This document shows, in pieces, positions 4,091 to 12,850 of a DNA stretch of 64,000 nucleotides. Within the stretch, counting starts at the first letter, position 1. Every line of letters starts with the position of its first letter. The stretch lies in the NCBI GenBank assembly GCA_963663165.1, contig OY760175.1:6112001-6176000 (forward strand). Reading direction: 5' to 3'. Source of the stretch: an uncultured Desulfospira sp. GTDB taxonomy: Bacteria; Desulfobacterota; Desulfobacteria; Desulfobacterales; Desulfobacteraceae. The translations under genes and the position numbers were made by a program. The notes under the pieces are model-generated. The model had not been told where the DNA came from, did not search any database, and was given only the letters and a program-made list of their open reading frames with translations.

Positions 4091-5731
4091 TCAGCTTTTT
4101 GCCCAGGTGGCCGAAAGGGTGTCGGTGATAAACCGGTCTGAAATGCACAGGGCTGAAAAAGAAAATAAAAATTCAATGAGTTCCGGCACGGATATGGGCT
4201 GGTTAAACCCCCCTAAGTGGGGACCGGTGAGCAGCAGGATTTCCTCTTTTCCCCGGGTATACGGGCTGGTATCTTCAATTCCCCGCTCCTTGAGAAACAG
4301 GGAAAAGGCGTCATCGTCCATGTTTTCCTGGTCTTCTATCCGGAGCCGCTCTGCCATGTGTTCATCTATGCCCATCTGCTCAATCAGCCGGCGGACCAGG
4401 TGGTCCACGGGCAGTTCCAGGGAGGGGGGGCGGCCGGTCAGGGCATGGTGAAAAGCTCTGGCCGTTTCCCGGATCAGCCCGGCAAAAAGGCCGGGATCAA
4501 AAAGGTGCCTGGCATCAACGGGTTTTCCCTGGCTGTCCAGCCCCCGCAGGGAAGGCGCTTTGTTCCGGAACCAGGAGCCTGCCACAAGGATCAGGCTTAA
4601 GATGTACTCCCCAATGGTGTGGGCCAGCTGCCGGCTGTTCTCCAAAACCGTCAGATGTTCAAAATCCCTGACCCCTGAGGTGCTGAAGTTGGGGTACTCG
4701 CAGGATTCAAGCCACTGGTCCAGCCGTCCGGCATGCTCCCACAGGTAGACCCCCTGATCCTGGCGCCGGTCCTGCTGGACCCGGTTGTGGAACAAGGGGA
4801 TAAGGGCCGTATGGATGATGCCCATCCGGCCTAACCGGCCCAGGATGCCGGCGGTTTGGGAGAATATTTGTCGGATTTCTTCCGGGTCTTTTAAATCCTT
4901 GGGGTCGTTGGGATAGTCAAAATAGGCCTCATGGACAGTGTAGGCAATGGCCATGGGCAATACGGATTTATTTTTTAAAAGGTCCTTTGGGATCTGGTCA
5001 ATCTCAAGGAGGCGGCGTTGCTGGATCAGCACCGGTTCGGGCAAAAGAAAACGGGTTTCAGGGCAGGGGGTATGTTCTGAAAACCAGGTCATCCAACGGC
5101 TTTCGCCGGCCAACTGCGGAACATTTTCCATAGAATTGGCAAATTTAATAACGCCCACAAGGTTGGTGCCGGCCATGGGGCAGACAATGCTCCGGCCTTT
5201 GGGGTTCAGGCGGCCCGGCCTGGCCCCGGTGATCCGTGAAAATTGAGACAAAACCTCATCAAAGGGTATGGCCACCGTTTTCTGGACAGGGATATCCGGG
5301 ATGTCCGGCATATTCAGCCGGATGGGAAGGTGGCTTAAACTCTCCGAGGCCGCCCGGTTCCGTTTCCCGGTTGAACCGATCATGATTTGCTGGATCCGGG
5401 GAATGATCTCCTGGCACAGGGCCTGGTCCGGGACATTTAAAACCATACTGACCAGGGCTTCAAATGCCTTCCGGTAAAGAAAAAGAATCTGCTTCTGGGT
5501 TTCAAACCGGTCGGATTCGACAAGGACAAAAAGGGCGGTACAGGTTTGCCGGGTAATGGTTTCCGGGACGGTTTCGATCTGGTCGGCTATATATTGAATG
5601 CCCATATAGGCACCGGAAAAATCAAGGGCCTGCTCGAGCATCTGCCGTTCGGTCCTTATCCGGCTCCCAGGACCGGCTTTATGGGGGGCTTCCTGAAGGG
5701 GGGACAGGGTTTTTTCAAGTTGGGCATTCAT
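4091..5731 (-). CDS. SidJ-related pseudokinase (putative protein glutamylase-like)
   Basis: Motifs GRS...GVIKF, HTALIPLFHNR...R..QGVYLW..GRLDQW....YPNF..SGVRDFEH and GPHLGGFN resemble the kinase-like core of Legionella SidJ. Confidence 0.8.
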   Translation of the reverse strand: MNAQLEKTLSPLQEAPHKAGPGSRIRTERQMLEQALDFSGAYMGIQYIADQIETVPETITRQTCTALFVLVESDRFETQKQILFLYRKAFEALVSMVLNVPDQALCQEIIPRIQQIMIGSTGKRNRAASESLSHLPIRLNMPDIPDIPVQKTVAIPFDEVLSQFSRITGARPGRLNPKGRSIVCPMAGTNLVGVIKFANSMENVPQLAGESRWMTWFSEHTPCPETRFLLPEPVLIQQRRLLEIDQIPKDLLKNKSVLPMAIAYTVHEAYFDYPNDPKDLKDPEEIRQIFSQTAGILGRLGRMGIIHTALIPLFHNRVQQDRRQDQGVYLWEHAGRLDQWLESCEYPNFSTSGVRDFEHLTVLENSRQLAHTIGEYILSLILVAGSWFRNKAPSLRGLDSQGKPVDARHLFDPGLFAGLIRETARAFHHALTGRPPSLELPVDHLVRRLIEQMGIDEHMAERLRIEDQENMDDDAFSLFLKERGIEDTSPYTRGKEEILLLTGPHLGGFNQPISVPELIEFLFSFSALCISDRFITDTLSATWAKS

Positions 5732-6138
5732 ACTGTCGTGTCCATATATAAAGGAACCCCAAGTTTGTAAAGGGGTTTTTATAAAGGAGACAGGGGGATC
5801 TCATGTAACTTGCCTTCCGGTGATGTGAATTTTGATGATAAGGATAATAATGTATAAAATGGGGACTTGGGATATGGGATATGGGACTTGGGGAGGCCGT
5901 GGATACGGCAATCCCCAAGTCCCATATCCCATATCCCAAGTCCAATTTTTTGAAGTTATGTTGCGAGCGGTCCTGAAGCCTTGATTGACGGTGGTTTGGG
6001 CGCCGTAATGCCGTAAGTCAAAATCGTTCAAATAAACAGTGGGTTATCAAGGGTATGACAAATTTGCAACAAATCACTAAACATAATAAACAGCTACAGT
6101 TTGCCCTGAGGAGTGCTGGTGATGAAGTCTGTAAGGAT

Positions 6139-7158
6139 CTATAGACTATCCAGCCACTCAAGAACGTTTTGCTTGTTTTCCCACTGGATCAACTCCTCAA
6201 TCTTCGGATCAGATTTCAGGTGCTGTTTGGTGAACTGGATGAAGTTCTCTTGTAAATGTCGCTTCTGGCCTAGATCAAGCTTTAAGTAAACCATTGTGGA
6301 TTTGACATTAGAATGCCCCAAGCGATTCTTAATTTCAGATAAAGGCCGATCCTCTGAGAGCATTCGAACGGCACACGAATGACGGAAGCTATGGACGGGG
6401 TGCATGGTCGCTGTCCGCTTTGCCGGTAAAGCCTGTTCAAGGTAGTTTTTACAGATCCGGTTGATACCGTGGCGGGTCAAGCTTGTTCCTCTTTGGTTGA
6501 TGAACAGCCTTTTTTTAAACGGATGGATTGGCGTATTGCGATGTTCTTCAATATACTGATGCATAAGCTCTACTGTTTTCCCAAGCAACTGAACTTGTCG
6601 ATATCGGTTACCCTTCCCAAGAATCGCCAGAGTTTGATTTTCATAATCAAAATAATCCATCTCAAGGGTAGCGATTTCCGTTGCCCTGGCACCGGTATCA
6701 TATAATAGATACAGAAGGGTATAATCTCGGAACCCGTCCTTTCTTTTAAGTTGGACCGCATTAAGGATTTGATTGATCTCCTGGGGATACAAAAATCCGA
6801 TCAACTTGTGTTGGCTTCGTTTCCGGGGAATATCAAGGATCGCATTGGTCAGTTTTTGTTGCTCGGGATAAATAAAACGGATCATTTTGGCAAAAGACTT
6901 TAAAACGGCCAGGCGCTGGTTCCGGGTTTTAGCCGTGTTGGACCGTTTGGATTCAAGCTCATTGAGAAACTGCAAAATTAATTCTACCGTGATATGTTCC
7001 AGATTGAGCGAACTGACCTTTACGCTGTGGTACTCGGCAGCAAACGGTAAAAAAAAGCGCATGGTATCCCGGTAACTTTTGATCGTATTGGGGCGGCACC
7101 CTTTGACATAAGGCAGGTATTGGTCAAAAAATTGAACAACGCAACGGGTCAGGTTCAT
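6139..7158 (-). CDS. Tyrosine recombinase, RIT subunit C-like
   Basis: TGARATE, GKGNRYR, HSFRHSCA, LGHSNVKSTMVY. The C-terminal LEWLDSL is typical of RIT C. Confidence 0.92.
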   Translation of the reverse strand: MNLTRCVVQFFDQYLPYVKGCRPNTIKSYRDTMRFFLPFAAEYHSVKVSSLNLEHITVELILQFLNELESKRSNTAKTRNQRLAVLKSFAKMIRFIYPEQQKLTNAILDIPRKRSQHKLIGFLYPQEINQILNAVQLKRKDGFRDYTLLYLLYDTGARATEIATLEMDYFDYENQTLAILGKGNRYRQVQLLGKTVELMHQYIEEHRNTPIHPFKKRLFINQRGTSLTRHGINRICKNYLEQALPAKRTATMHPVHSFRHSCAVRMLSEDRPLSEIKNRLGHSNVKSTMVYLKLDLGQKRHLQENFIQFTKQHLKSDPKIEELIQWENKQNVLEWLDSL

Positions 7159-8129
7159 GATTCATCCCTTCTGCCGGTGGTAAATTTGAACAGGCTGTCG
7201 CGGCTTTCAGCATCAACTGCTTTCAAATATTCCATGGTGTATTTATACTCAACATGACCCATATAGCCGGCAAGCACCGGCAGCACATTCCGGGGTGATT
7301 GTTTCCGGGCAATGGCTGCCTTCAAGGTGTTAATGGCAAAAGAGTGCCGTAAACAGTGCGGAGTGGGCTTCCCAAAGGTCGTGTCGCCGATAATTTTCCT
7401 TGGGCGGCGGATCCCGATTTGACGCACAGCATCGTGAAAAACAGAGCGAATACGGTTATCGTTCAAGCCGTTTTCCCCTATCCCCATGAACAGGTAGGGA
7501 TTCATATCGTTTTCAATTAAAGCGGCCCTGGTTAAAAGATAGTTGTCAATCTGCATGGCAGTTGATTTTGGAATAGGGATAAGACGGTCCTTTTTGAACT
7601 TGGTTTTCTCTATGTAAATCGTCTTTTCATCCGGCCGGTAATTTTTCAATCTCAGGCGCAAGGGTTCATTCATCCTCAGCCCACAGCGGGCAAGCAGAAG
7701 GATCACCAGATATTCACTGTAATCTTTAAGGAACCGCATAGGGGTTTGCCGGATCCGTCCGCATACCACCCCCAGTAACATTTCTACCTGCTCCGGTGAG
7801 AATATAAAGGGGATGAAGGTGCGTCGGGCCGGAGCGGTCACATCTTTCAAAGGGTTATCAAGATTTATCCGCTGCCGTTTCAGATAATCAAAAAAGCCTC
7901 GAACTACATTTAGAATGCTGGCTACGCCGGAGGGCTCAAGGCCAATCTCATTTTTAAAGGTGATATAAAAATGGGGCATCCAAATGTCTGAGAGATCCGG
8001 CTGCCTCATTAAAAAATCGTCAAAGGTAAGCAAGGCCCACCGGAGCATATGGCAACTGTATCCCAGTCCTTGCCGGTAAACAATAAAGTTTTCCATCTCT
8101 GTGGCCAAAAAGCTTTTAAACGGTTTCAT
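7155..8129 (-). CDS. Tyrosine recombinase, RIT subunit B-like
   Basis: CGLRMNEP, KTKFKKDRLIP, HCLRHSFA, LAGYMGH...TMEYL. Confidence 0.92.
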   Translation of the reverse strand: MKPFKSFLATEMENFIVYRQGLGYSCHMLRWALLTFDDFLMRQPDLSDIWMPHFYITFKNEIGLEPSGVASILNVVRGFFDYLKRQRINLDNPLKDVTAPARRTFIPFIFSPEQVEMLLGVVCGRIRQTPMRFLKDYSEYLVILLLARCGLRMNEPLRLRLKNYRPDEKTIYIEKTKFKKDRLIPIPKSTAMQIDNYLLTRAALIENDMNPYLFMGIGENGLNDNRIRSVFHDAVRQIGIRRPRKIIGDTTFGKPTPHCLRHSFAINTLKAAIARKQSPRNVLPVLAGYMGHVEYKYTMEYLKAVDAESRDSLFKFTTGRRDES

Positions 8130-9033
8130 CGAACAACACCCGGCGCATCAATTCCTTGTGGATACTTAGATATACTTTTGTGGAATCAATGATGGAATGC
8201 CCCATCATTTCTTTGATTTCAAAAATGCCGGCACCTGCTTCCAGCATGTTTTGTGCAAAGGTGTGGCGCAGCCAATATCCTGTACCGGGAAGACCGGCAG
8301 CCCGCAACGCCTTTGTTAAATCGTGCCTGGTGAGCCAGGCACTTACAGCTCTGTAAGGTGGGCAATGGCTGGTTAAAAAAAGAGAGCGAGACTGACTTTT
8401 AGGCCTGCCTCCAACGATATAAGCGGTGATTGCTTTGATAACTTCATCGGGAATGGGCAATTGAAGGGGCTTTGCATTTTTTGTGTTTTCCAGGTTTAGC
8501 AGTCCTTTGGCAAAACAGATATCGTCCAGAGTAAGGCGGCTGATTTCAATGGGGCGCAATCCAAGATAATAAGCCAGGTGAACCTGTGCATAGACACGAA
8601 GCTCTTTGGATGTTGCACAGGGCAAATGATCAAATAACTGACGGACTTCACCGGGTCTTAAAAATTTAGGAGGCTTGACTTGAGCAAACATTGGCGGACC
8701 GGTCACAAGCGGGGCTAAATTCTGTTGGATCAAATGCCGTTCATTATACAGGTAGTGCAAAAAGCCTCGAAAACAGGAACGGTATACCCCCTGGGTACTC
8801 TTTGCATATGGGGCATTGAACCTTGCCAGAAAATCATCAACATGCCCTATGTTTATATTGACCAGTGAGACTCCCGATGTTTGCAGATAACTGTCAAACG
8901 CTTTGATAATTTTGGTCCTGCAACAGGTTTGAGAAGGAGAGCTTTCCTTGATTTTAAGCATATGGTCCAGATAATCCCGGCGGATCTGATCCAGATCATA
9001 ACCGGGCGGACTTTTGGGTGTCTGCTCAACCAT
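8116..9033 (-). CDS. Tyrosine recombinase, RIT subunit A-like
   Basis: GLRPIEI, YWLRHTFA, MGHSIIDSTKVY. Overlaps both neighbouring genes. Confidence 0.88.
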   Translation of the reverse strand: MVEQTPKSPPGYDLDQIRRDYLDHMLKIKESSPSQTCCRTKIIKAFDSYLQTSGVSLVNINIGHVDDFLARFNAPYAKSTQGVYRSCFRGFLHYLYNERHLIQQNLAPLVTGPPMFAQVKPPKFLRPGEVRQLFDHLPCATSKELRVYAQVHLAYYLGLRPIEISRLTLDDICFAKGLLNLENTKNAKPLQLPIPDEVIKAITAYIVGGRPKSQSRSLFLTSHCPPYRAVSAWLTRHDLTKALRAAGLPGTGYWLRHTFAQNMLEAGAGIFEIKEMMGHSIIDSTKVYLSIHKELMRRVLFDETV

Positions 9034-9466
9034 GATCGGCCTCCATAACCAGTTTGCTCAAAATTTTTCCAACTGATTCAGGTTGACGGCTGTTCAGGGA
9101 AGATTTTTTTTGTACAGCAGATTGTATAAGGTTGGCCGGTAAGGAAAGCACCTGGTAAATGGTGCCGTCAAAGGCAATCAGATCATTTTCCATCAATCCA
9201 TCCCGAGCTTCAATGTACTGGTCCAGTTGCATTTTTAGCAGGGTGCATATTTTATCATAACTGTAAAAACTTAATCCGTTGCGGTCACCGGCCAGAACCA
9301 GGAAAAAATACAATAACAACTCGTCCCGGCTTAATGCTCGCAAAAATCCACCCGTAAGAAACCGATGGGGGATAAAACTAAATCCTCCTTTGATACAACG
9401 CACCCTTGAAGGGTTCAGGATTTCTTTTTTTACCATGCCGCGCCTCCAGTTTTTACGTTTATCCAT
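9026..9466 (-). CDS. Small winged-helix-like accessory protein of the element
   Basis: RVRCIKGGFSFIPHRFL...LLYFFLVLAGDRNGLSFY...ICTLL...ARDGL.ENDLIAF, which resembles replication-initiator-type HTH proteins. Overlaps both adjacent genes. Confidence 0.7.
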   Translation of the reverse strand: MDKRKNWRRGMVKKEILNPSRVRCIKGGFSFIPHRFLTGGFLRALSRDELLLYFFLVLAGDRNGLSFYSYDKICTLLKMQLDQYIEARDGLMENDLIAFDGTIYQVLSLPANLIQSAVQKKSSLNSRQPESVGKILSKLVMEADHG

Positions 9467-9845
9467 ATCCCCGCCGGGGAAATTGTGTGACGACTTGACC
9501 TGAAGAGCCGCAGAACTGACAATATGGTTTGATTGGAAGGCCCTGAATCTGAAACAAAATCCACAATATTATTGTCCTACACCAAGCAGGCAGCACTGTG
9601 GAAGCTGTATCATCCATGTTTTTTGTCTCTTGAATTTTTTTTCGATGCCGACGCCGGTTCTCGGCTTCCCGATGCCGTCTTTTCCCCTTCTCGGTCTGGC
9701 GGTATCGTCGCTGTGCTTCTCTTTTGTTTCTGAGGATTCCGGCCTTACGGCAGTCCCTGCAACAATAGGCCTGCCCTCTCCAGCAGAACCTGCAAACAAA
9801 AAATACGAAATGGCACCATCGGCATGTATTTGGAATTAAAAGCAT
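9459..9845 (-). CDS. Cys-rich (putative Zn-binding), basic accessory protein
   Basis: CxxC...CxxCxRGQxYCCxxC, an Arg/Lys-rich helix and a C-terminal CxxC. The stop overlaps the next gene's start. Confidence 0.7.
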   Translation of the reverse strand: MLLIPNTCRWCHFVFFVCRFCWRGQAYCCRDCRKAGILRNKREAQRRYRQTEKGKRRHREAENRRRHRKKIQETKNMDDTASTVLPAWCRTIILWILFQIQGLPIKPYCQFCGSSGQVVTQFPRRGYG

Positions 9846-9852
9846 TTTAGAT

Positions 9853-9970
9853 TTTTCCGGTATTGCAGATAACCGGAAAATGATATAGAAATATAACTGT
9901 GTGTGTGGGCTTCTCCGGCTATCGACGGGAGTTCACAATCAAAGCCCGGAGGGGCTACTCCGGGCTTTTT
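9853..9970. promoter_or_regulatory. Cluster of three hairpins in the leader of the five-gene RIT-like operon
   Basis: TTTTCCGGT/ACCGGAAAA (9853-9880), an imperfect stem at ~9905-9936, and AAAGCCCGGAG/CTCCGGGCTTT (9941-9968). Confidence 0.5.
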
Positions 9971-10232
9971 CTATGCATATGATTTGGAATTATACGAATA
10001 AAATGAAAGATTTGAAAAATCTTTTTGAATAAAAATGAATAAAACTCACAACATAATCAAACACGCTACATAATTGGAGATTATCCTTATTTTCAATTCC
10101 GGAAGGGTGCAATCCCATTTAGTGGCATGAACTGACATGTATCCAATTTTTCCGTTTTTCATGCTGCATTGAATACTCTGCCCTCCCAAAAAAAGCTGGA
10201 CTCCTGGCTCATGAAAGGTTATATAGATTTGC

Positions 10233-11105
10233 ATGAGCAGGACTTTAACCATTCAAGGACGTGAATTTTCAGAAGTTGATATACAAACGATACGCCATTT
10301 GATTAACGACAATCCCGCCTGGCACCGCACTCGTTTATCCAAAGAATTGTGTGCTCGCTGGGATTGGCGCACGGAAAAAGGTCTGCTCAAGGACATGGCC
10401 TGTCGAAGCATGCTGAGAAAACTTGAGCAAAAAGGGATGGTCACACTTCCCGTTGCCCGTCATAGCGGTAACCGTCAGCGGCGTATTCCCGATGTCCCCC
10501 ATGATTGTAAGCCGATAGAAACCACTTTGCGTAAGATCCGCCCGATACAATTGATACCGGTATCGGGCCGTGGAGATATTGATGATTTATTCCATTGCCT
10601 TATGGATCGACATCATTACCTTGGGTGTAAAGGGTATGTCGGAGAACATATGAAGTATATGGCTTTTGATCGCAATTCTCGTCCGGTTGCCTGCCTGCTT
10701 TTTGGCTCAGCAGCATGGAAAACGGCCCCTCGTGACCGATTCATCGGTTGGGATAGGTCGGCTCGTCGCAGGAACCTGCATATGACGACCAACAATACCC
10801 GATTTTTGATTTTGCCATGGATTCGAATTCCCCATCTTGCCAGTCATATTCTGGGTTCATGTCTTAGGCGGCTGAGCCGGGACTGGACAGCTAAATATGG
10901 TCACGATATCTGTCTGGTAGAAACTTTCGTGGATCGATCACGCTTTGCCGGAACTTGCTACCAGGCGGCAAATTGGCAAAAAATTGGTCAAAGCAAAGGG
11001 CGAAGCCGTCAAGACAGGCACCACAGACTTCAGGTGCCGATAAAAGACATCTATGTATACCCGTTGACTTCCAATTATAAAAAGCAGCTATGCACACAAA
11101 CTTGA
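10233..11105 (+). CDS. DUF4338 (DruA-like) domain protein carried inside the IS
   Basis: HHYLG, GSAAW..APRDRFIGW, NNTRFLILPW..IPHLASHIL, ETFVD..RFAGTCYQAANW...G...GR.R.D and KDIYVYPL. Confidence 0.85.
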   Translation: MSRTLTIQGREFSEVDIQTIRHLINDNPAWHRTRLSKELCARWDWRTEKGLLKDMACRSMLRKLEQKGMVTLPVARHSGNRQRRIPDVPHDCKPIETTLRKIRPIQLIPVSGRGDIDDLFHCLMDRHHYLGCKGYVGEHMKYMAFDRNSRPVACLLFGSAAWKTAPRDRFIGWDRSARRRNLHMTTNNTRFLILPWIRIPHLASHILGSCLRRLSRDWTAKYGHDICLVETFVDRSRFAGTCYQAANWQKIGQSKGRSRQDRHHRLQVPIKDIYVYPLTSNYKKQLCTQT

Positions 11106-11162
11106 GGGTTTCAGTCATCGAAATGACAGGTAATTTTTCAACCTGCAATTCGAGGACTGATC

Positions 11163-12563
11163 ATGAAACTTGCTTCCACTATAAGGGATATTCGAACCCT
11201 TCTAACAAAAGCCGTAGCTGATTTCCAAAACCATCAAAATGCTAATATCCTGTGTGAGCAGGTACGGAACGGCCTCTTCATTATTGTGGAAGCATTTCTG
11301 GTTCCCGTCATTGAAAAGGCACTGTCTGACCCGGATCTTTTATCTGAACTGAAAATTGGTGCCGGTAAAAAGGGACTGCGTTTCAACGGATACCGCCCCA
11401 GCAGCATTCGATTATTGACAGGAACTACCCTGAGCATCCGATCCCCTTACTTTTCAAAAGTTGTTTCCAAACAACGGCCAGGCCCTAAAACAAAAAAACG
11501 ACAAAAGGGGACAGGCCGCCATTTTGGGCTTGATTACCTTGGTTTTATCGGCAGGTGTTCAACGCTGTTCGCTTCGTCGGTGGTCCATGCAGCATTGCTC
11601 TGCCCCTCTTTTGAAATTGCCCGAAGATCCCTGGAAAACCATGCAATCAACTTAAATGTCAAAACCATACGCCGCATAACAATGAATCTTGCACAGGAAG
11701 CTATGCCCCTGCGTGGCCGGGTATCTTTTGGAGATACTGATCGCGTTGGTGGCAAAACGGTTCTGGTTTGTATCGACGGCGGTCGCCTTCGAGAACGGAG
11801 GCCAAAACGGGGACGTAAATCAAAAGGCCAAAAGCGGCAGGGATATCATACTGAATGGAAAGAACCCATTCAGTTTGTCATACATATTGTCGATCCGGAC
11901 GGCACAATATCCAAAAAACACTTGCCGGTTTATGATGCCACAATGGGCGGTATTGATGCCGCTTTTGATATTCTTGAGATCTACTTGCGTGAATTAGATA
12001 TTCCCAAAGCCAAGCGTGTTGTTTTCTGCTGTGACGGTGCACGTAGCTATTGGAAGCGAACAGGCCCGCTGGCCAAACGGCTTGAAATCGAATCCTATTA
12101 TGAGGTAATCGACTACACCCATGCAAAACAGAATTTACATGAAATCGTGGACAAATTGCCAAAGAGAATCCCTATAAAAGAAAGAAACCGGATAGCAGAA
12201 TCTTGGAAGAACCTCCTTTGGGATGGCAGATTCAAAGACCTTAGAAAAGAAATTGTAAAACACATTACGTACCCTAAAAGGCGCATAGAAGCACTATCCA
12301 AATTTAAAAGTTACTTCGTGAAAAATCGAAACAGAATGCAGTATCGCCAGTTCCGCAGCCTGAAAATACCTACTGGCAGCGGCTGTGTTGAAAGTGCAAT
12401 ACGTCGGGTTATAAATCTCAGAATGAAATCACCGGGTATATTCTGGAAACCGGAAACATCCGAATCAATGTTGTTCTTAAGGAGTCAGCTCCTTTCCGGG
12501 AGGTGGAACATCTTGACTGACAATATCTTCATACAAATTCGGTCACTTTGCTTAGGCCACTAA
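11163..12563 (+). CDS. DDE transposase, ISKra4/ISLre2-like
   Basis: VCIDGGRL (D), FCCDGARSYW (D), IDYTHA (DxxH) and GSGCVESAIR (E). The stop codon lies inside the right TIR. Confidence 0.88.
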   Translation: MKLASTIRDIRTLLTKAVADFQNHQNANILCEQVRNGLFIIVEAFLVPVIEKALSDPDLLSELKIGAGKKGLRFNGYRPSSIRLLTGTTLSIRSPYFSKVVSKQRPGPKTKKRQKGTGRHFGLDYLGFIGRCSTLFASSVVHAALLCPSFEIARRSLENHAINLNVKTIRRITMNLAQEAMPLRGRVSFGDTDRVGGKTVLVCIDGGRLRERRPKRGRKSKGQKRQGYHTEWKEPIQFVIHIVDPDGTISKKHLPVYDATMGGIDAAFDILEIYLRELDIPKAKRVVFCCDGARSYWKRTGPLAKRLEIESYYEVIDYTHAKQNLHEIVDKLPKRIPIKERNRIAESWKNLLWDGRFKDLRKEIVKHITYPKRRIEALSKFKSYFVKNRNRMQYRQFRSLKIPTGSGCVESAIRRVINLRMKSPGIFWKPETSESMLFLRSQLLSGRWNILTDNIFIQIRSLCLGH

Positions 12564-12850
12564 ATGGGAATGCACCCATTCCGGAATAGATGGCTTTCTT
12601 TTACAGGCGATTGCCCTGACCATGTCCACTAGGTCCACAAGGGGAACAAAAGCCAACAGTCATGATGGATTCTTCTCATGGGGCCCAGACCTTTGACTCG
12701 AAATCGCTATCGACCTCAAGAACCGTTCGATAGCGATCCCGATCGCGACAGTGAGGGGAGTCCCCGATATTTTTAATGGTATAGATTGATCAAGCGGTAA
12801 TTGTTTGACGTTCGCCTGTCCTACCGACCCGGCACAGGTTCACCACACAG

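Follow-up and report, generated by a model that had tools for sequence, protein, structure and literature searches.

Organization of the mobile unit

In a 64,000-nucleotide stretch of DNA from an uncultured Desulfospira sp. (assembly GCA_963663165.1, contig OY760175.1, forward-strand positions 6,112,001 to 6,176,000; hereafter the window), five minus-strand genes lie between TTATGT...ACATAA inverted ends. Three of them encode tyrosine recombinases arranged as in the elements called recombinases in trio (RIT), and the two genes in front of the trio encode a Cys-rich zinc-finger (ZnF) protein and a winged helix-turn-helix (wHTH) protein. We refer to the two front positions as slots A and B and to the pair as the front cassette. 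The unit and its genes are the following:

5956-10073, minus strand: whole mobile unit, 4118 bp, eight genomic copies
9459-9845, minus strand: slot A gene, Cys-rich ZnF protein of 128 amino acids (aa) that contains a second CxxC and a long basic helix and belongs to no named family
9026-9466, minus strand: slot B gene, winged-helix protein of HTH_36 type, 146 aa as open reading frame (ORF), likely start at 9436
8116-9033, minus strand: RitA-type tyrosine recombinase, short form, 305 aa
7155-8129, minus strand: RitB-type tyrosine recombinase, 324 aa, catalytic residues intact
6139-7158, minus strand: RitC-type tyrosine recombinase with an extra C-terminal helix, 339 aa, catalytic residues intact

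The source genome consists of one contig of 6.74 Mb, in which BLAST detected eight copies of the unit, all of them with the five genes and identical ends, and with 0-6 substitutions relative to the window copy. TTATGT at 5956 and ACATAA at 10068-10073, common to the eight copies, are the true ends, as the initial annotation of the window had proposed from its letters; a contig of public run X1, whose independence from the source sample is uncertain, covers exactly 5950-10079 and stops there. Mobility was deduced indirectly, from the precise ends of the eight copies and the presence of empty target repeats. The 4118-bp unit is a recently active RIT-type mobile element whose five genes move together.

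Consecutive ORFs from slot A to RitC overlap by 8, 8, 14 and 4 bp, the last two overlaps being those between adjacent recombinase genes. The initial annotation had described five ORFs that each overlap the next; the ORFs and three of the overlaps stood, whereas the 9459/9466 overlap presupposes a start at an upstream ATG. In the database call and in most homologues, the gene begins at the ATG at 9436 (136 aa), with GGAGG 6 nt upstream, and this start leaves a gap of 22 nt between the slot A and slot B genes instead of an overlap. Position 9436 is thus most likely the start of the wHTH gene, rather than 9466, which casts doubt on one of the overlaps. Matches to the phage-integrase family above cut-off were obtained for the three recombinases, and the Cys-rich and HTH proteins gave sub-threshold matches only.

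Both front genes were under purifying selection, as were the recombinases, with ratios of nonsynonymous to synonymous substitution of 0.13-0.22 and 0.09-0.18 in six pairwise comparisons. The possibility that they belong to a separate remnant, beside an element ending near 9040, was rejected because all eight copies hold all five genes and none ends near that position; in addition to the selection on both genes, no informative foreign locus was free of the cassette.

A RIT clade with a front cassette

The trio follows the order RitA, RitB, RitC. Arg, Lys, Arg, His and Tyr could be aligned in all three recombinases, with Tyr replacing the first His of HxxR in RitA, and the extra C-terminal helix of RitC aligned with the RitC proteins of pHG1 and Bacillus. 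RitC was 32-33% identical to RitC of canonical RITs, and no close relative of it was found in 72,556 plasmids (best match 33%). Canonical RITs (Van Houdt 2012, PMC3414803; Smyshlyaev 2021, PMC8138268), such as that of Cupriavidus pHG1 (H16_RS31805-31815), share with the window clade three overlapping recombinases RitA-B-C with the catalytic Tyr in all of them, the RitC C-terminal helix, TTATG...CATAA end sites and the occurrence in multiple copies. Canonical RITs from four plasmids presented the same gene order without front genes, in agreement with the earlier statement that such elements contain recombinases only.

The unit departs from the usual description of a RIT in several respects. It has five genes in 4118 bp (4.1-4.7 kb in the window clade) instead of three genes in ~3.5 kb, and carries two extra genes plus a structured leader inside its ends. 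RitA of RITs has two core-binding domains, whereas the RitA of the unit lacks the first ~100 residues, which correspond to the first core-binding domain; this short form is a trait of its subclade, and RitA of most clade relatives has the 390-415 aa form. Instead of the 28-34 bp inverted repeat of canonical RITs, the ends share TTATG sites and match at 10 of the 12 terminal bases, with no long inverted repeat. Finally, matching 6-bp cores flank the elements of the window clade; visual inspection of four canonical RITs revealed none.

RitA matches were present in 27 of 301 genomes of the class, own genome included. Among 28 foreign RitA loci, a slot B gene was found in 26, the remaining two being contig ends: 21 had a wHTH gene, one a wHTH-RitA fusion and four a CHC2 gene. 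In a tree of RitB plus RitC (40 rows, obtained from 98 trios thinned at 85%), 32 cassette-clade rows were separated from eight others with SH-like support of 100 (FastTree, on a long branch); three of the clade rows had been labelled automatically as having no cassette, because one locus was short, one contained the fusion and one had RitA split. Clade records with names were mostly Desulfobacterales, and those labelled as other phyla or as an archaeon were mostly short contigs of metagenome-assembled genomes, on which we did not rely. Very probably, then, there is one RIT clade bearing a modular front cassette. The window element is a RIT variant defining that clade, real and active, so that the extended RIT with a shared accessory module suggested initially gained support, as a whole clade rather than a one-off hybrid. 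Table S4 of PMC3414803 lists deltaproteobacterial RITs, which might include members of it.

In one locus (L259:1770-3362, genome G477) wHTH and RitA share a single reading frame of 530 aa, either a natural fusion or the outcome of a single mutation.

The front cassette in other transposon backbones

Five architectures of front cassette occurred in the own genome:

Architecture 1, eight copies: ZnF, wHTH and trio (window element)
Architecture 2, five copies: ZnF, wHTH, ParB-like protein, IstA and IstB
Architecture 3, six copies: ZnF, CHC2, 184-aa protein, DDE-like transposase and AAA ATPase
Architecture 4, four copies: 202-aa protein, wHTH and trio
Architecture 5, four copies: 179-aa CxxC protein, CHC2 and trio

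The trios of architectures 4 and 5 shared 77% DNA identity despite their differing front genes. The IS21 element of the own genome (12489-17031) and that of a Caballeronia SBC1 plasmid have homologous ZnF and wHTH genes and the same leader RNA as the unit, the two proteins being 43-45% identical to their own-genome IS21 counterparts. They differ from the unit in their DDE transposase IstA, ATPase IstB, TG...CA ends and target duplications at varied sites; istA, istB and TG...CA ends were absent from the unit. Cassette relatives also head IS21 elements on betaproteobacterial plasmids of Caballeronia, Cupriavidus and Burkholderia. The link with IS21 that the initial annotation had mentioned was therefore borne out, and the neighbourhoods of the accessory proteins proved to include both RIT and IS21 contexts.

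Among the best 80 of 267 wHTH loci in GTDB, the next gene was a RIT recombinase in 64, istA in 14 (nine of these being copies within one genome) and neither in two, and 20 of 20 hand-picked, weak-scoring loci were IS21 elements. For the best 80 of 457 metagenome ZnF loci, wHTH was the next gene in 72 (57 followed by RIT, one by IS21 and 14 by the contig end) and was not called in the other eight. The wHTH was present in 79 of the 301 class genomes, its relatives formed 1725 clusters at 50% identity, and no match was found among 50,697 phage records. In quick trees of the wHTH, the backbone label required 6-7 changes, strong branches forced at least two, and monophyly of the RIT-linked sequences was rejected (p-AU 0.002, approximately unbiased test; 58 rows after thinning, with five long-branch rows dropped). 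These phylogenies indicate that the wHTH has switched transposon backbone more than once. Changes in a slot consisted of replacement and not of loss, and other transposons have either a RepB primase or a CHC2 finger behind their AAA ATPase.

These data bear on the idea that the cassette is a dispensable passenger, mainly supplying a promoter, which would have been acquired when a canonical RIT entered the start of istA in a cassette-bearing IS21 and the RIT end shifted upstream. Canonical RIT trios were indeed found in or beside istA of IS21 in three unrelated genomes (L246/L113 in G194, L112 in G289, and L105), one of them nested inside another RIT; a RIT preference for istA, and with it a route for cassette capture, is possible. 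The idea also agrees with the lack of a cassette in canonical RITs and with the position of IS21-linked branches, the deepest in the wHTH tree under midpoint rooting only. We nevertheless regard it as improbable, given that both front genes are under purifying selection, that none of the 26 informative foreign loci is cassette-free and that changed slots are refilled; even if the cassette did arise by the capture route, its genes need not be dispensable.

Ends, 6-bp core and target

The sequences at and around the ends of the window copy are:

5956-5967, plus strand: outer predicted recombinase-binding site of the RitC end, motif also in relatives and canonical RITs
6081-6086: inner ACATAA in opposite orientation, RitC end, read from the sequence
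10051-10073, minus strand: two tandem TTATGT sites, 17 bp apart, accessory end, conserved in relatives
5950-5955: RitC-end core of 6 bp, which reads TTGAAG in the window copy and TTGGAG in the seven others
10074-10079: 6-bp core at the accessory end, TTGGAG
5790-5955, continuing at 10074-10104: target outside the element, a host palindromic repeat resembling repetitive extragenic palindromic (REP) sequences

The direct 6-bp core outside both ends was not part of the initial annotation. In the own genome TTGGAG was present on both sides in six of the eight copies, the window copy had TTGAAG/TTGGAG, and one copy had TTGGAG/TATTAG, with another insertion sequence (IS) and its 4-bp duplication at the end. 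Script-found foreign loci, after exclusion of those that lacked both ends or the tandem site, yielded 30 distinct junction pairs and 16 cores; the two cores were identical in 25 pairs, differed by one mismatch in three and by five in two. In one of the five-mismatch loci (L153), each of the two cores occurs in close relatives, which suggests how a lineage may change its core.

A lineage-specific 6-bp core at both ends points to integration of a circle guided by the core, and we consider it quite probable that the trio acts in this way. RitA, RitB and RitC would circularize the element by connecting its two TTATG ends across the core, and the circle would then integrate at a site with an identical core and A/T-rich arms, an occasional mismatch being tolerated; the preference for one host palindromic repeat would follow from this core matching. 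The arm-6 bp-arm layout of the ends presumably resembles that of Xer/dif sites. No back-joint corresponding to the circle junction was found in contigs of four of seven public runs, a result that is uninformative since contigs drop rare forms, and the skip joints 5949/5952 to 10074/10079 in such contigs fit other, empty copies of the repeat.

The same position of the host repeat was occupied by six of the eight copies, the other two being outside it. Genome-wide, TTGGAG hexamers numbered 1946, of which 124 were flanked by A/T; the core was present at 41 repeat ends, these six being the occupied ones. Such a concentration at one position of one repeat family would also be expected if the cassette selected the target, for example by binding the palindromic repeat, a role in targeting that the initial annotation had mentioned among others. 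We judge it very improbable because the target follows the core and the own-genome IS21 and DDE+AAA carriers of homologous front genes insert at varied, unrelated sites with ordinary target duplications; moreover, RITs with a like cassette use many different cores, and two copies lie outside the repeat.

Strand-biased circularizing integrative elements (SE), GInts and Tn554 are described as having several tyrosine recombinases, small accessory proteins, target specificity and a carried 6-bp spacer (PMC10214605, PMC5385486), all of which have a counterpart in the unit. The unit, however, has three catalytic recombinases of ordinary size and no large integrase, its accessory genes are placed upstream, it has no cargo, and Pfam and NCBIfam scans gave no match to Tfp/GinC or to Srap/GinD/TnpC. 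Unlike the fixed footprint of SE, the side of the variant core differs between two unit copies, the only informative copies with a mismatch.

The REP-like repeat family of the target has dozens of copies genome-wide. A link to RAYT was looked for and rejected, as no repeat copy was present at seven Y1_Tnp loci and one further region checked. In a region rich in short repeats (G000:C1:5566997-5592506), a PIN-domain-like ORF is split by one copy of the unit, which has a 1.5-kb IS exactly at its end, and the flank of another copy resembles by eye an integron attC site.

Leader and predicted antisense RNA

The segment between the accessory end and the slot A gene contains the following predicted features:

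9989-10016, minus strand: operon promoter TTCAAA-16-TATAAT, predicted from consensus match alone (three sites vs. 1.2 expected)
9941-9970, plus strand: predicted terminator of the antisense RNA, a hairpin that is conserved, shows compensatory changes and has its U-tract on the antisense strand
9899-9972, plus strand: predicted antisense RNA of ~75 nt with two stem-loops (folding prediction)
9863-9891, plus strand: predicted antisense promoter TTGCAG-17-TAGAAA (leader alignment)
9852-9880, minus strand: hairpin that hides the ribosome-binding site (RBS) in relatives, GGAGG being eroded in the window copy

A conserved leader of 140 nt precedes the ZnF-type gene in all three backbones (36 rows), and a profile built from such leaders located it at all 19 ZnF loci of the own genome and nowhere else in it. 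Two leader hairpins covary, with two-sided change in eight pairs, a number that none of 500 shuffles reached and that exceeded slid controls; one has the U-tract on the antisense strand and the other hides GGAGG. The antisense strand presents TTGCA, then exactly 17 nt, then TA (T in 35 and A in 33 of the 36 rows, as compared with 13-26 in neighbouring columns), and an antisense promoter site scoring at least 8/12 was found in 20 of the 36 leaders, vs. 3.6 in shuffles. Within the antisense-RNA span, CCGGAAG can in principle pair with the anti-RBS arm. Comparison of the predicted RNA with Rfam gave sub-threshold matches only, none at gathering level.

Judging from these alignments, antisense control of the cassette is somewhat likely. 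The antisense RNA would hold the RBS of the first gene closed and thereby control copy number, and the pairing of CCGGAAG with the anti-RBS arm would be the switch that it closes.

The ZnF and wHTH proteins

The ZnF protein has eight invariant Cys and a long basic helix. It had no match over cut-off in Pfam or NCBIfam (NinG, E 0.057) and no fold match above Z 4.4, and its Atlas clusters were unnamed. Its profile was weakly linked to slot A proteins of the V179 type (38%, E 3e-4) and not to the remaining slot A types; the V types are related among themselves.

For the wHTH, a structure model with pLDDT 73 had as top Protein Data Bank (PDB) match in two programs a staphylococcal RepA_N initiator (Z 8.1, root-mean-square deviation 3.5, 87 aligned; Foldseek E 0.024), and DnaB and DnaD N-terminal domains were near the top among its structural neighbours. 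Matches to viral structures were enriched in the names replication initiator, replisome organizer and protein O (best named E 3.8e-4), and HTH_36 was matched by 25 of 27 members of the family (best E 4.2e-8), the window protein falling below cut-off. As modelled, the fold is closest to N-terminal domains of replication initiators, tied with generic winged helices. The alternative occupant of slot B, in a sister RIT and in the DDE+AAA element, is a DnaG-type CHC2 finger.

RepA_N/pfam13730 modules (pSK41, pPR9) offer a parallel. In pSK41 an antisense RNA of ~83 nt (RNAI) is proposed to close the RBS of the RepA_N initiator, and in pPR9 an HTH_36 domain (pfam13730) serves as the N-terminal domain of the initiator (PMC5703833). 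Shared with the unit are the winged-helix class, with its HTH_36 match, and an antisense RNA of similar size, predicted here, upstream of an RBS-hiding hairpin. The unit differs in that its wHTH has no C-terminal primase-binding domain, the first controlled gene encodes a ZnF protein and the host is Gram-negative.

A weak lead concerns DciA. Tails of wHTH proteins reached scores of at least 5 on a profile of the host DciA first helix in 18% of cases, vs. ~1% in controls; the window wHTH scored 0.7, and any amphipathic helix may score. The sections on DnaB binding in PMC13501899 and PMC12547741 place it in the lasso extensions of DciA, not in the first helix.

Three IS21 elements (L310, L311 and L312) have a CHC2 finger after istB, with tails that closely resemble the host DciA first helix (scores 6-17). 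A second, partial match to the DnaB N-terminal domain lies at G000:C1:221975-222406, within a 533-aa frame.

Function of the cassette

Taken together, we propose core-guided circle transposition by the trio combined with an antisense-controlled helper cassette that would come from the replication systems of plasmids or phages, a proposal to which we give slightly less than an even chance. The front cassette would be a helper independent of the recombinase, although this part of the proposal is the weaker one. Its initiator-type winged helix, or the primase zinc-binding domain in sister elements, would bind element DNA, and the bound slot B protein would help the host priming or restart machinery to finish copy-out, a step needed by tyrosine-recombinase and DDE elements alike. 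To the replication-helper role taken by itself we give about the same odds. Its generalization, namely that tyrosine-recombinase trios, IS21 and DDE+AAA elements share a plug-in, antisense-controlled mini replication module that completes transposition by recruiting or priming host replication, with the target choice of RIT lineages inherited via the core, is possible but rather doubtful.

Several observations count against this proposal. Antisense control of copy number is also a feature of plain IS elements. In the leader, T occupies the sixth position of the antisense -10 in only 8 of 36 rows, the antisense promoter is not enriched in other slot A families, the alternative helix covaries weakly and has a predicted probability of 0.10 in the window copy, where GGAGG is eroded, and the calculated opening of the RBS in the absence of the antisense RNA was obtained for just 19 of the 36 leaders. 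As for the wHTH, winged helices of ordinary transcription factors were tied with the RepA_N match (Z 7.8-7.2), no PDB match in Foldseek fell under E 0.001, PDB sequences searched with a profile gave no match, and beyond the winged helix there is just a short terminal helix, in place of the C-terminal primase-binding domain of RepA_N. Two of the 30 core pairs differ at five positions. Lastly, there are canonical RITs that have no cassette and are nevertheless multi-copy (the RITs of the four plasmids; section 11 of PMC3414803), and the cassette therefore cannot be generally required.

A purely regulatory cassette, in which wHTH and ZnF proteins regulate the operon at the level of transcription or translation, or serve as directionality factors, and the antisense RNA is a copy-number brake, with no contact to the replication machinery, is only slightly less probable than the helper proposal. 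The small DNA-binding folds at the head of the operon, the tie in Z with CRP/FNR and MarR regulators and the leader RNA that accompanies the ZnF gene in three backbones are in line with it, as is the need of GInt and SE elements for a small fourth protein in recombination, as recounted in PMC5385486 and PMC10214605. This explanation, however, does not predict two alternatives of replication type in slot B (initiator wHTH and primase CHC2), nor would one expect trios, IstAB and DDE+AAA to share a directionality factor. A cassette common to chemically unrelated transposons points to a shared unmet need; if priming of replication is that need, the cassette bears on the interaction of copy-out elements with the host replisome.

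A full-text literature search, whose scope left ISfinder and Ricker 2013 outside, returned no description of RITs carrying additional genes, nor of the present cassette or its leader; in PMC12306157, which is unrelated, RIT refers to terminators. As of PMC10214605 (2023), laboratory reproduction of RIT transposition had yet to be achieved, and PMC3414803 reports no convincing recombinase sites. With the clade come precisely defined ends, a rule for the 6-bp core that spans 16 cores and an abundant natural target, which together make the RIT mechanism directly testable. Should the core indeed set the target, this would interest developers of tools for site-specific integration.

Neighbouring genes

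To the right of the unit, within the remainder of the target repeat, lies a multi-copy ISKra4-like element (10105-12577, plus strand), in which a DruA/DUF4338 (Mom-like) gene precedes the transposase gene. On the left, a gene for a SidJ-related pseudokinase (4091-5731, minus strand; NF033874 above cut-off) is unrelated to the element.

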